Assembly: GCA_036149055.1 (NCBI GenBank)
Contig: JAYZQJ010000208.1
Span: 1 to 36,390 of the forward strand
Origin: Myxococcota bacterium
GTDB taxonomy: Bacteria > Myxococcota_A > Polyangia > Polyangiales > Sandaracinaceae
Length of the DNA stretch: 36,390 nucleotides
Reading direction: 5' to 3'
Shown here one piece after another: positions 2,382 through 9,946 of the stretch. Below the pieces are notes generated by a model. That model was not told the origin of the DNA, made no database searches, and saw only the letters and a program-made list of their open reading frames with translations. The stretch's first letter is position 1, and each line of letters begins with the position of its first letter. The position numbers and the translations under genes were made by a program.

Positions 2382-4205
2382 ATGCGCCCGGCGCTCCTGC
2401 TCCTCCTCCTGCTCGGCTGCGACGGCTCGCTCGACGCGCCGGACGCGAGCCCGGAGGCGGACGTGGGCCCGACCGAGCCGGGGTGCGCGGACCTCGAGAC
2501 CCGGGTGGTCTGCGAGGAGGGCTGCCGGCGCGAGGCCTGCCGCGGCGACGAGGTCTGCGAGGCGGCCGCCTGCGTGCCGTGGACGGAGGCGACGCTCTTC
2601 GCGGACTTCACGCTCGACGTCTCCGGGCTGCGAGCGAGCGTCGAGGTGCTCCCGGGGGGCTTCCCGCGGCGGCACCTCGAGGCGCTCCGCTTCGACTTCG
2701 GGGACGGGACGGCGGGGTGGGGCGAGCGGCTCCGTCACGCGTACGCGGCCCCGGGCGTCTATCCGGTCGAGCTCGAGGTGCGCCTGACCGACGGCCGCGT
2801 CCTGTCGGCGCGCAAGCTGGCCGCGCTCGGATCGCTCGACGAGCATCGCCCGCTGCGCCTGACGGTGAACGCGATCCCCGAGGCGCTGAACGGGAGCGCG
2901 CCGTACCCACGCGAGGTCGGCGCGCCGGTGCCCTTCCACCTGCGGGTGCCGCGGTCGGGCTTCACGGTGGACGTGACCCTGCTGCCCGCGCCCGGCGACG
3001 CGATCGATCCATCGGCGGTCACGCTCCGGAGCGAGCCGCCGTTCGGCGCGCCGACGCTCGCCTTCGACGCGGACGGCGTGCGCGGCGTCTGGGAGGTGGA
3101 CGCGGACGCGCCGGAGGGCCTGGTGACCTTCGTCGCCGAGGTGACCAGCGAGGGCGGCGCCCGGCACGAGGCCCGGCTCACCGTCGAGGCGGTCGCCTTC
3201 GGCCCGGAGCTCGACCCCTTCGACGCCCCGCTGACCTGGCTCTTCCGGCTCGACACCGACTTCTTCACCACCCGGCGGGCGGCAGGCGGAGGCCTCGAGA
3301 GCGCGCCGACGCCGAACGGCGAGCCCGACCTCCTCGAGGAGCTGCGCCTCCTCGGCGCGCAGGGCGGGGACGCGGCGCTCGACGCGGCCTTCCTGCGCTG
3401 GATCCTCGACGCCATCCGCGGGCAGACCCTGCGGGTCTACGAGGGCGAGATCCCCCTCGACGTGGTCTGGCAGGGCGACCCGGGCGCGCCGGACCCGGCC
3501 GCGTTCCGACCCGACGGCGCGTTCTCGATGATGCGCTTCGGCGGCGTCTTCGACGGCTTCGTGGGCTTCAGCGGCATCTCGCCGCACCACGCCGAGCGCA
3601 TGGACGACTCCACCGCCGACCGCGGCGTGGCCACCGCGAGCTTGTTCTCCATCTTGCTCACCACGCCGGTGGTCTCCTCCGCGCTCGCGCCGATCGATCC
3701 CGCGCGCGGTCAGCCGATCGGCGCGCACCCCGCCGACGCCGCGGTGCTCGACCCGGGCTTCGATCCCTGGGGCGACGTCGAGCCCGACGCGCTCGCCCGC
3801 TACGAGACGCTGCGCACGCTGGCCCGCTACCTCGCGCTCGTCGTCTCCTCGGTGACCGCGCACGAGATGGGCCACGCGATGGGCTTGATGCCGAACGGCG
3901 CGCCGCCGGCGGGCTTCTTCGGCGACACCCCCGAGCCGCTCTTCGTCGGCGACGAGCGCACCGACCCGTGGCACGCGGACCTGCCGGGCCTGAACCTCAT
4001 GCAGGCGGGCGGCGACTACCTCGGAGTGGTCGACGACGCCCTGGCCTCTCTCGAGCTCCCGCCGGGCGCGGACCTGCTGCGCATCGCCGAGATCCTCGCG
4101 CTCGAGAACCGCCCCTCCGCCTACGCCCGCGCCTACCTCGAGGGCCGCCTCACCTACGTGGACGGCGGCGCCGGGCGAGGCGGCGCCGTCGGCTGCCGTC
4201 GGTGA
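2382..4205 (+). CDS. Lipoprotein with PKD domain and C-terminal zinc metallopeptidase motif
   Basis: MRPALLLLLLLGC lipobox; FDFGDG..HAYAAPGVYPVELEV (PKD); TAHEMGHAMGL (HExxH). Confidence 0.8.
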   Translation: MRPALLLLLLLGCDGSLDAPDASPEADVGPTEPGCADLETRVVCEEGCRREACRGDEVCEAAACVPWTEATLFADFTLDVSGLRASVEVLPGGFPRRHLEALRFDFGDGTAGWGERLRHAYAAPGVYPVELEVRLTDGRVLSARKLAALGSLDEHRPLRLTVNAIPEALNGSAPYPREVGAPVPFHLRVPRSGFTVDVTLLPAPGDAIDPSAVTLRSEPPFGAPTLAFDADGVRGVWEVDADAPEGLVTFVAEVTSEGGARHEARLTVEAVAFGPELDPFDAPLTWLFRLDTDFFTTRRAAGGGLESAPTPNGEPDLLEELRLLGAQGGDAALDAAFLRWILDAIRGQTLRVYEGEIPLDVVWQGDPGAPDPAAFRPDGAFSMMRFGGVFDGFVGFSGISPHHAERMDDSTADRGVATASLFSILLTTPVVSSALAPIDPARGQPIGAHPADAAVLDPGFDPWGDVEPDALARYETLRTLARYLALVVSSVTAHEMGHAMGLMPNGAPPAGFFGDTPEPLFVGDERTDPWHADLPGLNLMQAGGDYLGVVDDALASLELPPGADLLRIAEILALENRPSAYARAYLEGRLTYVDGGAGRGGAVGCRR

Positions 4206-4220: not shown

Positions 4221-4691
4221 ATGGCCCTCCCCGTCCGCTCGGCCGATCACCTCACGCGGTGCCTCTCGTGCCGCGTGCACATTCGCGCCGCAGCCCGCCC
4301 CAGCCTCACCGACTGTCCTTTCTGCGGCGCCAACCTTCACCGCGATCGTGGGCGATGGGTGAACACCGGGCGCAGCGGGCTGCTCGCCGGGGCGCTGCTC
4401 GCGTTCACGGCGTGCAGTGAGGAGCCGCCGCCGGAGCCGAGCCCGGCGCCTCCCTCCGCGCAGCTCGGGCAGACCGCGCCCTCCGACCCGGCGCTCTCCG
4501 ACCCCGCGTCCGAGATCGAGGCGACCCACGAGCCGACGGACCAGTTCGAGGCGGAGCCAGCGGATCGCCCGCCGTCGGCTCCGCGCTACGGGCTCGCCCC
4601 GAGTCCGCGCCCCCAGCGGTCGATCGTCAACCCGTTCGAGCCCGAGCCGAGTGCAGCCAGCGAGCCCTCGGTCCTCGATCCGTTCGAGTAG
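4221..4691 (+). CDS. Zinc-ribbon/lipobox YG-motif protein 1 (putative rSAM substrate)
   Basis: CLSC..CPFC, GRSGLLAGALLAFTAC, acidic/Pro-rich tail with PRYGLAP; paralogous to the next two genes. Confidence 0.8.
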   Translation: MALPVRSADHLTRCLSCRVHIRAAARPSLTDCPFCGANLHRDRGRWVNTGRSGLLAGALLAFTACSEEPPPEPSPAPPSAQLGQTAPSDPALSDPASEIEATHEPTDQFEAEPADRPPSAPRYGLAPSPRPQRSIVNPFEPEPSAASEPSVLDPFE

Positions 4692-4750
4692 ACCCGACGC
4701 GACAGTCGCACGTCGAACGGGGTATCTTCAGCCGAACCGGAGGTCTCGCC

Positions 4751-5185
4751 TTGAAGCCGATCAAGTCCCGCCATGGTCTGACCCGCTGCACCGCGTGCCG
4801 CTCGCACATCCGCGCCGCCGAGCGCCCGAGCGGGACGAGCTGCCCCTTCTGCGGGGCCAACCTCGTGACCGGGAGGCGGAGGATCACGGCCCCGACCGGG
4901 CGGAGCGGCCTGGTCGCCGGCGCCCTCCTCGCGTTCTCGGTGACCGCCTGCGGCGGCTCGAGCCCCGAGGCCGACGAGCCCACTCAGCAGGTCGCGGACG
5001 ACGACGCGCCGGTCACCAGCGAGGATCCGCCGCCGGCCGACGACCAGTACGCCGACGATCCCGCCGACGACAACGCCGCGGTGGCCGAGTACGGCATGGC
5101 GATGCCGGAGGACGAGTACGAGGACGAGCCGTCCGACAGCCCGCGCCCGTCGCCGCGCTACGGCCTCGCGCCGGGACCGCGCTGA
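4751..5185 (+). CDS. Zinc-ribbon/lipobox YG-motif protein 2 (putative rSAM substrate)
   Basis: GGAGG RBS before TTG; CTAC..CPFC, GRSGLVAGALLAFSVTAC, EYGMAM and PRYGLAP. Confidence 0.8.
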   Translation: MKPIKSRHGLTRCTACRSHIRAAERPSGTSCPFCGANLVTGRRRITAPTGRSGLVAGALLAFSVTACGGSSPEADEPTQQVADDDAPVTSEDPPPADDQYADDPADDNAAVAEYGMAMPEDEYEDEPSDSPRPSPRYGLAPGPR

Positions 5186-5571
5186 TGGCGACGCGCTCCC
5201 GGCCCGGGCTCACCGTCTGCCCGCGCTGCCGCGCGCACGTCCAGGCCGGGGAGAGGCCGTCGACCACCGTCTGCCCGTTCTGCGAGGCGCCCCGCGTCGG
5301 CGCCGTCGGGCGGAGCGGCGTGCTCGCGGGGGCCCTGCTCGCCTTCGCCTGCGCGGGCCCGGACGCCCCCAGCGCCGAGCCGGAGCCGAGGCCGGACGAG
5401 CCGGTGGACGTCTTCGAGCCGTCCGACGAGAACATCGAGGTCGAGGCCTACGGGGCCGCGCCCCTGCCGGAGGACGAGCTCCCGCCCGAGCCGGACACCG
5501 AAGACGACGACGGCTGGCGCCCGCCGCCCGATGATCCGCCGGACGAGCCCATGTACGGCATCGCGCCGTGA
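5185..5571 (+). CDS. Zinc-ribbon/lipobox YG-motif protein 3 (putative rSAM substrate)
   Basis: ATG overlaps previous stop (TGATG); C-terminal part of track ORF 4417..5571; CPRC..CPFC, GRSGVLAGALLAFAC, AYGAAP and terminal MYGIAP. Confidence 0.8.
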   Translation: MATRSRPGLTVCPRCRAHVQAGERPSTTVCPFCEAPRVGAVGRSGVLAGALLAFACAGPDAPSAEPEPRPDEPVDVFEPSDENIEVEAYGAAPLPEDELPPEPDTEDDDGWRPPPDDPPDEPMYGIAP

Positions 5572-6926
5572 GCGAGGCGGACGTGAGCCAGGCGCGCCCG
5601 AGGCCGCCGGTCGGCGCCACCCCCGAGGAGCGACCGCGGGATCTGATCCGCGGCGCGGCCACCGGTGACGAGGCGGCGATCAGCTACGTGGTCTGGGAGA
5701 TCACGCTCGCCTGCGATCTCGGCTGCCGGCACTGCGGCTCGCGCGCGGGCAAGGCGCGCTCGGACGAGCTGAGCACCGAGGAGTGCCTCGACGTCGTGCG
5801 CCAGCTCCAGGACCTCGGCGTGCGGGAGGTGACCCTCATCGGCGGCGAGGCCTACCTCCGGGAGGACTGGGACGTCATCGCCCGCGCGATCGTCGACGCG
5901 GGGATGCGCTGCGGGATCACCACCGGCGGCCGCAACCTGGACGCGGAGCGCGTGGCCCGGGCGGAGGCGGCGGGCATCTCGACCATCAGCGTCTCGATCG
6001 ACGGCCTGGAGCGCACCCACGATCTCCAGCGCGGGGCGCGGGGCTCCTTCCGCGCGGCGGTGGAGGCGGCGGAGCGGGTCTCGGCCAGCTCGATGCGGCT
6101 CGCGACCAACACCCAGATCAACCGGCTCTCCATGCCCGAGCTCGTGGCGATGGCCGATCTCCTGATCGCGCTCGGCTCCGAGGCCTGGCAGCTCCAGATC
6201 ACGGTGCCGATGGGCCGCGCCGCGGATCGGCCGGAGCTCCTGCTGCAGCCTCACGATCTGCTCGAGCTCTTCCCGCTGCTCGTCTGGATCAAGCAGAACA
6301 AGCTGCAGCCCAACGGGATCCGCGCCTTCCCCGGCAACAACATCGGCTACTTCTCGCACTTCGAGGAGCTGCTCCGCTACGGCGGCGCGGGCGGCACGCA
6401 CTGGGCGGGCTGCGGCGCGGGGACGAGCTGCCTCGGGGTCGAGGCCGACGGCAAGGTGAAGGGCTGCCCGAGCCTCCCCTCGAACGAGTGGACCGGCGGC
6501 CTGACCCGCGAGCGCTCGGTCCGCGAGATCGTCGAGCAGACCGACGAGCTGACCCACCTCGGCGCCCGCACCCGCGACGACCTCTGGGGCTTCTGCGGCA
6601 CCTGCTACTACGCCGACGTGTGCAAGGCCGGGTGCACCTGGACCTCCACCGTCCTGATGGGCCGCCCCGGGAACAACCCCTACTGCATCCACCGCGCCCT
6701 CGAGCACGAGAAGCAGGGCGTCCGGGAGCGCCTCGTCCGCGTCGAGGCCGCGCCCGGCGATCCCTTCGACCACGGCCGCTTCGAGACCCTCCTCGAGCCG
6801 CTGCCGACCGCGACCGAGGCGACCATCCTCGGGGTGCCGCTCGAGCGGGTCATGACGCTCGGCGTCGACAGCCCCGGCCTCATCGACGAGGCCGAGGGCA
6901 AGCGCCGCCTCCGCATCCTGCGCTGA
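5568..6926 (+). CDS. Radical SAM/SPASM peptide-modifying enzyme, splicease (PlpX)-like
   Basis: WEITLACDLGCRHCGSRAG (CxxxCxxC), IGGEAYL, GNNIGYF, SPASM cysteines CGAG..GCPSL..CGTCYYADVCKAGC..NNPYC; GTGA overlap with protein 3. Confidence 0.88.
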   Translation: MSEADVSQARPRPPVGATPEERPRDLIRGAATGDEAAISYVVWEITLACDLGCRHCGSRAGKARSDELSTEECLDVVRQLQDLGVREVTLIGGEAYLREDWDVIARAIVDAGMRCGITTGGRNLDAERVARAEAAGISTISVSIDGLERTHDLQRGARGSFRAAVEAAERVSASSMRLATNTQINRLSMPELVAMADLLIALGSEAWQLQITVPMGRAADRPELLLQPHDLLELFPLLVWIKQNKLQPNGIRAFPGNNIGYFSHFEELLRYGGAGGTHWAGCGAGTSCLGVEADGKVKGCPSLPSNEWTGGLTRERSVREIVEQTDELTHLGARTRDDLWGFCGTCYYADVCKAGCTWTSTVLMGRPGNNPYCIHRALEHEKQGVRERLVRVEAAPGDPFDHGRFETLLEPLPTATEATILGVPLERVMTLGVDSPGLIDEAEGKRRLRILR

Positions 6927-6954: not shown

Positions 6955-8402
<1,448 letters not shown>

Positions 8403-8406
<4 letters not shown>

Positions 8407-9884
8407 GCCAAGGCTCCCGGCTCTGGGGCCCGGAGGCCGCCGCGTCCAGACGCGCAAGGCACGGTGAGCCGGAAGACGCTGCCTTCGTCCGAGCTCTCGA
8501 GGGTCAGCGTGCCGCCGTGCGCCTCCGCCACCTCCCGCGCCAGCGAGAGCCCGAGGCCCACGCCGACGCTCTTGGGCGACCTCGGGACCGAGCGGGTGAC
8601 GAACGGCTCGAAGATGGTCTCGGCGAGGTCGGCGGGGACCCCGGGGCCGGTGTCACGCACGTCGACGCTCACCCACCGGCGGTCGGCGGTCACCTGTCGC
8701 GCCACCGTGACCACGCTCCCTCGCGGCGACACCGCCACCGCGTTGCGTACGAGGTTGGCGAGCGCGTGCTCCACCAGCGCGTCGTCCAGGTCGCAGAGCG
8801 CCGGAGGGCCCTCGCGCTCGACCGCGAGCTCGACCCCCGAGGTCTTCGCGTCGCGCCCCTCCTGCTCGAGCGCGGCGTCGATGACTCCGTCGATCGGGGT
8901 GCCGTGCCGGACCCGCAGGGGAGAGCCGGCCCGGAGGCGGGACAGGTCGAGGATGGAGGTGACGGTGCGGATCTGGCGCTCGCAGGCGGTCCGCGCGATC
9001 GCCACCACCCGGAGCTGCCGGGCGTCGAGCGCGCCCACCGCTCCGTCGGCCAGGAGCGCGAGCGCCTCGCGCATCTTGGAGAGCGGCGTCCGCAGCTCGT
9101 GCGAGCAGGATGCGATGAACCCCTGCTTGAGCGCGTCGAGCTCGGCGAGGCGGCGCCGCATGCTCTCGAGCTCTCCTCCGAACTCGACCAGCTCGGCGGG
9201 CCCGCCGACGTCGCGCACCGGCGTCCCGAGCTCTCCTTCGCCGAGCTTGCGCGCGGTGCGGGTGAGGGCGACGAGGGGCGCGGTGACGCTGCGGGCGAGG
9301 GCGAGCGACACGAGCGAGCCGACCGCGAACGCGACGCCGAACAGGATCAGGCCGCCCCACACGCCCGCGTTCCCGAGGCTGCGCATCTCCTCCTCTCGCG
9401 CGATGATCGCGTCGTGGAGGCCGGCCATGCGGTCCACCCACACGTTCGTCAGCTCCTCGTCGAGGGCCGAGCGCCGCGCCTGGAAGGCGCCCGACGTCAC
9501 CCGACCGCAGGCCTCGAGCGTGTCCATCTGGAGCGCGAGCGTCACGTAGCGCTCGCTGACCTGCGTGAGGTTCGGGTGCGCGTTCGGGGTGCGGTCCAGC
9601 ATCTGGCGCAGCTCGTCGGCCGCGGTCAACACGTCGCTCCTGACCCGCGGTGACCACGAGGGGTCGCGCGCGCACCGCTCGGCGGCGTGGCGGAGGGCGA
9701 CGTCCAGGCGCCAGCCGGCGCTGTGCAGCTCGGCCTCGCTGTCGAGCGACGACAGCTCGCGGAGGCGGAGCTGGGCCAGCGCCGACGTCATCCGGTTCAT
9801 CGAGACGAGCACGAGGGTCATCGCCACCGCGACGATGGCGAGGGGGATCGAGACCGAGAGCAACAGCCGGGGAAACAGACGCAT
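8403..9884 (-). CDS. HAMP-domain sensor histidine kinase (GlrK-like)
   Basis: Two TM segments, HAMP, SHELRTPL H-box, NLVRNA N-box, DTGPGV, GVGLGL; start MRLFPRLL inside track ORF 8403..11420. Confidence 0.9.
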
Positions 9885-9946
9885 CGGTGCCGCGGACCAG
9901 AGCACGTTCCGTGACAGCGGGCGACGTGGCGGCCGCCGAGGAGGGC

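Follow-up and report, generated by a model that had tools for sequence, protein, structure and literature searches.

Spliceotide systems of type I (PlpAXY/PcpAXY; TIGR04103) combine a PlpX-type radical SAM enzyme with precursors that carry an XYG target motif (PMC11414181, PMC11002830). Their leaders are of the Nif11/NHLP kind, and the Y/RRE protein is separate. Binary spliceotide systems (types II–V), such as the type II system RhaX/RhaA of Rheinheimera, place a radical SAM/SPASM enzyme of the same type beside YG precursors (PMC11414181, PMC11626197). A separate Y or RRE protein is absent, and a role of the leader helix in binding and activating the enzyme has been proposed (PMC11414181). As reported there, all non-cyanobacterial spliceases lack Y, with the leader helix replacing it (PMC11414181, Richter et al.). 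For RhaA, prediction places a helix of the leader at the Y site; fusion of the leader to RhaX led to efficient leader-independent splicing (PMC11414181). Native RhaX and PlpXY also modify leaderless cores (PMC11414181). In DAG-RiPPs (DybA/DybH), a precursor that bears a signal for signal peptidase II is modified in the cytoplasm, and the lipidated product has been shown in E. coli; this provides a published precedent for signal peptidase II as a RiPP leader peptidase (PMC12636315). The MNIO enzyme DybH recognises the C-terminal core only, and the signal is of the ordinary short kind (PMC12636315). According to a 2022 review, isolation of a native spliceotide product was still outstanding (PMC9811515).

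The window, that is, the whole stretch of 36,390 nucleotides analysed here, corresponds to contig C208; the myxococcotal host genome comprises 9.9 Mb at 73% GC. It contains three precursor genes, A1–A3, followed by a radical SAM gene, all on the forward strand. A1 (4221–4691) encodes 156 residues and A3 (5185–5571) 128 residues, both with an ATG start. A2 (4751–5185, 144 residues) starts with TTG downstream of a GGAGG, at the start position found in its relatives. The gene for the PlpX-type radical SAM/SPASM enzyme (5568–6926, 452 residues) adjoins A3 downstream, and stop and start codons overlap both at A2/A3 and at A3 and the enzyme gene. The GC content at third codon positions of the precursor frames is 0.88–0.98. 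RNA-library contigs from four runs cover the cluster, one spanning 4633–5860; they are uninformative on transcription, strand, and level. An upstream gene on the same strand (2382–4205) has a lipoprotein-like start, a PKD domain, and a zincin-like HEMGH motif. Directly downstream of the enzyme gene, the minus strand (6955–9900) carries convergent genes resembling a sigma-54 response regulator and a sensor kinase.

The three precursors share a four-cysteine ribbon of the format CxxC-(14)-CPFC that starts with CxxC-x-x-H. The ribbon is followed by a linker, an arginine, an uncharged stretch of 12–15 residues, and Ala-Cys. The mature parts are acidic, Pro-rich tails with five YG sites in total. 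In A1, the ribbon spans C14–C35 (4260–4325) and includes the conserved His20; the predicted docking helix, or h-region, runs to the lipobox-type Cys65 (4368–4415, the cysteine at 4413–4415), and the single candidate Tyr-Gly splice site lies at 4587–4592. In A2, the ribbon spans C13–C34 (4787–4852), with L10, R12, C16–H19, and P32 as predicted enzyme contacts. The helix G50–S63, also a predicted enzyme contact, leads to the lipobox-type Cys67 (4898–4951, the cysteine at 4949–4951), and YG sites are at 5090–5095 and 5159–5164. The corresponding parts of A3 are the ribbon (5218–5283), the h-region (from 5308), Cys56 (5350–5352), and YG sites at 5449–5454 and 5554–5559; position 5352, where the sequence-only reading had set the end of its region, is this lipobox cysteine. 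The pattern of a ribbon, a hydrophobic stretch, and [AGS]C occurs in six reading frames of the genome, all of them family members, and in none of three shuffled versions (0, 0, 0). These counts rule out a chance origin of the anatomy.

By sequence, the enzyme belongs to the PlpX clade of radical SAM-SPASM proteins. It scores 485 bits against TIGR04103 (E 1e-145), below the equivalog cut-off of 725, and 437 bits against TIGR03913 (E 5e-131), below the cut-off of 592. The next-best family, TIGR04133, reaches 149 bits, far under its cut-off of 425. TIGR04133/TIGR04134 describe a Bacteroidetes system in which a radical SAM/SPASM protein is paired with putative lipoproteins, a likeness to the present system; we know of no ribbon in that family, and TIGR04134 has no match in the precursors of the window. 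A Pfam domain search reveals no RRE/PqqD domain in the enzyme, and a signal peptide is likewise absent. The fold model has a pLDDT of 93.8. The closest named relatives are from Sandaracinaceae and other Myxococcota, and the identity to a cyanobacterial relative (locus L074) is 48%. A search of solved structures returned no close splicease, the best match being SkfB (E 2.5e-18) over the radical SAM core only. A confidently folded C-terminal extension of 40 residues (6800–6926) marks the clade of the enzyme, including most related enzymes, and an RRLxVL-like motif recurs at the N- or C-termini of many myxobacterial spliceases. The extension is not taken as a built-in PlpY, because the cyanobacterial enzyme at L074 has one of similar length together with a Y-type gene.

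With a PlpX-clade enzyme and adjacent XYG precursors, the locus appears to be a member of the spliceotides. It does not belong to type I, as the Y protein and Nif11 leaders, both seen at L074, are both absent here. The precursors have no Nif11 match, no Y-type protein was found in the host genome (best E 2.06 with a cyanobacterial query), and the leader shares no sequence likeness with the Y-type protein of L074. The sequence-only reading had noted that no PqqD/RRE gene is visible in the window, and this holds. The genome search it proposed for a stand-alone RRE gives a single PF05402 match, on contig C7, beside a different radical SAM gene. An RRE acting in trans was rejected as a candidate, as this only PqqD belongs to another radical SAM cluster, whose radical SAM protein is not PqqE by cut-off. 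There (C7:121400–128000), the PqqD gene lies between a kinase-like gene and a radical SAM/SPASM gene, followed by a giant lipoprotein-like ORF. The same reading took the missing PlpY as an argument for leader docking. That argument is invalid: the absence is uninformative because the published binary spliceases all lack Y (PMC11414181). By analogy, the findings on RhaA/RhaX would make a binding and activating leader the expected design.

The host genome contains eight family members at E ≤ 6e-9 in a profile search, the next match being at E 0.07. It encodes two enzymes of the PlpX type, and three of the eight members lie away from both. The second splicease cluster (L001:8300–10522, contig C227) has two precursors with a different leader subtype, which is also carried by the stand-alone precursors L002:7240–7683, L003:6496–6954, and L004:6233–6646. 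With a first small profile, a leader match was found at 68 of the 80 best related enzyme loci. Altogether 126 precursors were collected, two rows being left out by the parser. A cysteine follows the hydrophobic stretch in 122 collected precursors, and every one of these 122 contains YG. In the mature parts of the 122 members, 260 of 317 tyrosines are followed by glycine, compared with a glycine frequency of 12%. Proline is present at position −2 of 157 and at position +3 of 192 of the 260 YG sites.

A profile of the leader alone retrieved 3411 matches at E ≤ 0.001 from 1.84 billion proteins, and the best 150 were examined. After 25 unrelated multi-ribbon proteins were dropped before counting, the remaining 125 single-domain matches all have the cysteine (125/125) and 119 have YG; several of the six YG-less matches look truncated. 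YG is also present in 20 of 20 further family members that were fetched. Some top profile matches (P0005, P0006, P0009, P0015, and others) are large proteins with many zinc-ribbon repeats in acidic linkers and are apparently unrelated. An ESM Atlas search gave matches only in Myxococcota clusters.

Among Myxococcota genomes, a leader match at E ≤ 1e-6 occurs in 46, and every one of these also encodes an enzyme that matches at E ≤ 1e-60, compared with a background of 106/301; at a loose leader cut-off, the enzyme is found in 77 of 101 genomes. This co-occurrence is read as a pattern rather than a p-value, because kin genomes are not independent. Eleven genomes combine a strong enzyme match with no leader match. 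On reading, seven of these loci hold clear divergent ribbon precursors, two hold weak ones, one holds a degenerate one, and one is cut by a contig end. The profile counts, the genome co-occurrence, and the reading of the 11 loci thus indicate that leader, YG core, and enzyme travel together.

Two groups of family members have unusual mature parts. In 11 of the 122 precursors, the cysteine is directly followed by Tyr-Gly (for example L040:1010–1273 and L085:4576–4866, and also L087, L088, L100, L101, L103, L114, L116, and L124). In these, the lipidated cysteine would be the X of the splice site, and the ketoamide would lie beside the lipid anchor. Larger YG-bearing partners with folded-looking domains are found at L075:3–689 (the same as L086), L099:4401–5285, L037:1968–3902, and L091:2155–3138, suggesting that true proteins may be substrates.

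None of the four cysteines is replaced in any of the 84 aligned leaders. The segment GR[SG]G-L-[VL]-A-G-x-L at the start of the hydrophobic stretch is also conserved. The conserved part had been placed in the CxxC..CPFC ribbon ahead of the lipobox cysteine; the ribbon stands, and the start of the hydrophobic stretch has to be added to it. The ribbon is modelled with a pLDDT of 76–81 over residues 11–40. No zinc-ribbon family exceeds its cut-off for the leader, and a fold search yields no match at E ≤ 0.001; the weak family and fold matches are zinc ribbons, none of them significant. The distance from ribbon to cysteine varies between 12 and 53 residues, and the median leader length is 62 residues.

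The iron-binding alternative bears on this element. CxxC...CxxC knuckles are able to bind Fe or Zn, and the zinc in our complex model is a supplied input. The four cysteines might bind iron as in rubredoxin, the leader being an electron or iron donor instead of a recognition handle. We consider this hardly credible, as rubredoxin-type potentials are too high for reduction of the radical SAM cluster and the weak matches, though not significant, are to zinc ribbons.

The precursors show the anatomy of lipoproteins in their sequences, with a positive n-region, an h-region, and a lipobox cysteine, and their signals look like signal peptidase II substrates. Among 246 members, 98% have A, G, or S at −1, compared with 91% of 809 ordinary lipoprotein-like signals of the host, and positions −5, −3, and +2 are alike in the two sets. 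At other positions of the h-region, the frequency of A, G, or S is 30–68%. Positive charge prevails in the n-region of 93% of members, and negative charge in the mature part of 95%. The host encodes two LspA matches and several Lgt matches. The family h-regions are rich in Ala and Gly, and their median hydrophobicity is 2.14, against 2.53 for the ordinary host signals; those of the three precursors in the window (2.26, 2.30, and 2.52) are only slightly below the host median. Tat export was rejected, a twin-arginine motif being present in 2 of 246 members with a strict pattern and in 6 of 122 with a looser one; the Tat check suggested by the sequence-only reading is thus negative. Its placement of the ribbon on the N-terminal side of the lipobox cysteine, in the part that signal peptidase II would remove, is borne out by the lipobox-type profile and the host LspA and Lgt matches.

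Alternatively, the precursors might not be lipoproteins, the hydrophobic stretch serving as an enzyme-binding helix or an uncleaved anchor and the cysteine having another role. A strict lipobox [LVI][ASTVI][GAS]C is found in only 41 of 122 precursors (a relaxed one in 104 of 122), the n-region is unusually long, and Cys-less variants exist. One ribbon precursor (L051:2146) has an anchor without the cysteine, one (L091) lacks the cysteine and has a signal peptidase I-like site, and the gene at L036 encodes a ribbon and YG without a hydrophobic stretch. We nevertheless regard this alternative as very improbable. The preference for A, G, or S at −1 stands out within the h-region and matches the host signals, the charge distribution is that of the lipoprotein type, the processing enzymes are encoded, and the cysteine is lost exactly in the leader–enzyme fusion described below, where export is unneeded. 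Signal peptidase II remains the candidate leader peptidase in the reading we prefer.

A complex was modelled from the enzyme (71-row alignment), residues 1–69 of the A2 leader (84 rows), a supplied zinc ion, and three 4Fe-4S clusters. The prediction, which the sequence-only reading had suggested as a check, supports docking, with an ipSAE of 0.74 (0.74, 0.82, and 0.74 in the runs) and 0.01 for the best of three controls. This mark is reached by 116 of 157 solved pairs and 2 of 215 mismatched pairs, a calibration that is rough here since our own alignments and ligands were used, unlike in the calibration. In the best run, ribbon residues 6–19 and 32 contact F262, H278, E266, and Y347–Y348 of the enzyme, with the lowest error at His19. 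Signal residues 50–63 pack against the enzyme helix 229–244 (6252–6299) and the C-terminal extension, of which residues 416–429 (6813–6854) lie beside the signal helix. The predicted ribbon-binding patch extends over 6351–6611 (F262, 6351–6353; H278, 6399–6401; Y347–Y348, 6606–6611; residues 243, 259, and 328–329 in the numbering of the model). Agreement of contacts between runs is only 28% at worst, and the pLDDT of the partner is 58–76. The pose rests on one run, because the other two give 24 confident contacts and partner pLDDT values of 58–59. Ribbon and helix were folded together, and stickiness of the hydrophobic helix could raise the score of the model. Since the predicted contacts involve the N-terminal half of the helix as well as the ribbon, the leader appears to be composed of two parts.

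Conservation at the predicted interface is consistent with this arrangement. Leader interface positions are more conserved than others (0.51 vs 0.34), in a model built from the same alignment. Position 262 is Phe wherever a parsed locus has a clear ribbon precursor (83 of 83); among 120 cyanobacterial enzymes, 98% have Tyr there. At the 16 loci without a clear ribbon match, it is Phe in seven, Tyr in five, His in two (one genome twice), and unparsed in two. One locus (L092) has a divergent ribbon precursor without the His, yet Tyr at the position of Phe262. In one clade, anecdotally, H278 is replaced by V or I together with an altered ribbon. Across the patch, 4 of 13 positions contrast between Myxococcota and Cyanobacteria, compared with 32 of 373 overall (Fisher p 0.018). 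Kinship explains part of this difference, because the contrast is mostly one between these two groups. The Phe262 pattern thus gives moderate support to docking, confounded by kinship.

A natural fusion of leader and enzyme provides the strongest model-independent evidence for docking. In an alphaproteobacterial Arenibaculum metagenome-assembled genome (L078:3671–5317; G303 C266; proteins P0275–P0278), the ribbon and the helix are in frame with the enzyme through a Pro-rich linker. The enzyme at this locus had kept the patch although the first precursor search had no match there; the genome search then showed the fused leader. Three further database proteins, 82–96% identical, have the same fusion. 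The fused piece corresponds to leader positions 1–63, with its end directly ahead of the lipobox (hhalign 98.7%, E 4e-16). All four fusions keep the four cysteines and have no fifth cysteine and no YG core, one copy containing a YG inside the start of the leader. The retained part appears to be the stretch that is modelled on the enzyme, and the lost part what export needs. Across the four, invariance reaches 75% for the ribbon, 87% for the helix, and 86% for the core, but only 41% for the linker. The ribbon has Tyr or Phe in place of the His, and the fusion is confined to one lineage. A frameshift artefact was ruled out, as the other frames contain no lipobox or YG core and the fusion occurs in three independent database proteins. 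No YG precursor was seen near the fused enzyme in 34 kb around L078. The cluster also holds other radical SAM genes, Ala/Val-rich precursor-like genes, a protease gene, and an M23-like gene. In a quick tree, from which no donor or order is inferred, the enzyme groups among those of Myxococcota. A search for other long proteins with the leader gave three matches (177–202 residues) among 7996 scored and no additional fusion, which is weak evidence against others. The sequence variants at L036, L051, and L091, one case each, would point the same way as the fusion.

The signal helix alone might be the activator, as the counterpart of the helix in PlpY and RhaA, with the ribbon as a passenger or a metal or redox sensor that gates the helix. 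The published activator is a helix (PMC11414181), no part of the fusions is better kept than the helix, and at one locus (L093) the ribbon is degenerate while the signal and the YG sites are intact. Phe262 is, however, lost in the enzyme of that very locus. The lowest-error contacts of the model lie in the ribbon (H19, S18, L10), the four cysteines are invariant in the fusions as well (4/4), and the leader bears no sequence likeness to a Y-type protein. Activation by the helix alone is accordingly judged improbable.

It is also conceivable, although unlikely, that the enzyme reads the PxYGxP core alone, as in DybH and PlpXY, and that the ribbon serves only export timing or stability, slowing translocation from its place in the n-region. 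Leader-independent splicing has been published for PlpXY and partly for RhaX (PMC11414181), and DAG-RiPP enzymes read a C-terminal motif (PMC12636315). The proline context of the YG sites is strongly conserved, hydrophobicity is lower in the family h-regions than in ordinary signals, and the ribbon-to-Cys spacing is variable. This explanation leaves unexplained the ribbon and helix on a cytoplasmic fusion that has neither lipobox nor core, the passing complex model, and the ribbon-bearing YG gene without a hydrophobic stretch at L036. On the basis of the complex model, the natural fusion, and the co-occurrence, the ribbon-bearing signal region is likely to dock the radical SAM enzyme. The original proposal that the zinc-ribbon signal region docks the enzyme is thus retained in its main part and amended in that the helix makes contacts beside the ribbon.

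We propose that the N-terminal 55–66 residues of each precursor constitute a dual-purpose leader. Through the predicted zinc ribbon and the front half of its hydrophobic helix, this leader would dock onto the radical SAM enzyme encoded next to it, in the cytoplasm. If PlpY and the RhaA leader are a guide, docking would activate the enzyme and not merely tether the core. The enzyme would splice tyramine out of the Tyr-Gly sites (−C8H9NO), leaving an α-keto-β-amide. The same stretch would afterwards act as a lipoprotein signal, with lipidation by Lgt and cleavage by LspA, and the product would be an acidic envelope peptide that bears ketoamides and is held by a lipid anchor. Gene linkage, precursor anatomy, YG sites, lipobox-type profile, and leader–enzyme fusion can be read directly from the sequences, and we consider the explanation as a whole probable. 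A more speculative step is that export would be held off until release, because the bound enzyme would cover half of the h-region (residues 50–63); such masking is plausible, and we put it forward tentatively. The same caution applies to the wider idea that a folded zinc-ribbon signal leader switches on the splicease and is masked from export when bound, coupling O2-sensitive splicing to lipidation, with the natural fusion as an always-on splicease; we would sooner doubt than assert it.

The system would thus join the spliceotides with DAG-RiPP lipoproteins while working like a binary spliceotide system. Compared with RhaX/RhaA, the leader consists of a four-Cys ribbon and a lipoprotein signal helix, the cores are acidic and of low complexity, and signal peptidase II would take off the leader. 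The leader–enzyme fusion, engineered and C-terminal for RhaX (PMC11414181), is natural and N-terminal here. Compared with type I, the predicted ribbon patch differs in the 120 cyanobacterial enzymes. Contrary to our reading, the authors of the DAG-RiPP report anticipate no leader dependence in lipidated RiPPs, and the words "splice" and "radical SAM" are absent from its main text (PMC12636315). No description of ribbon-bearing splicease precursors was found in the literature, and the survey defining types I–V (Scott 2022) may list them; the phrase "zinc ribbon" does not occur in the papers listed for zinc ribbons together with RiPP terms.

If true, the explanation would extend the known types of RiPP leader by a folded one that binds metal and would provide a leader-dependent lipidated RiPP, which the DAG-RiPP report deems unlikely (PMC12636315). 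It would also give a concrete answer to how cytoplasmic modification finishes before export. The natural fusion, which mirrors the engineered RhaX–leader fusion, is a candidate one-component tool for protein splicing. A lipid-anchored spliceotide would have to be looked for in membranes and vesicles. An enzyme match is present in about a third of the sampled genomes of the phylum (106/301), and these bacteria may then carry lipid-anchored ketoamide peptides in their envelopes.
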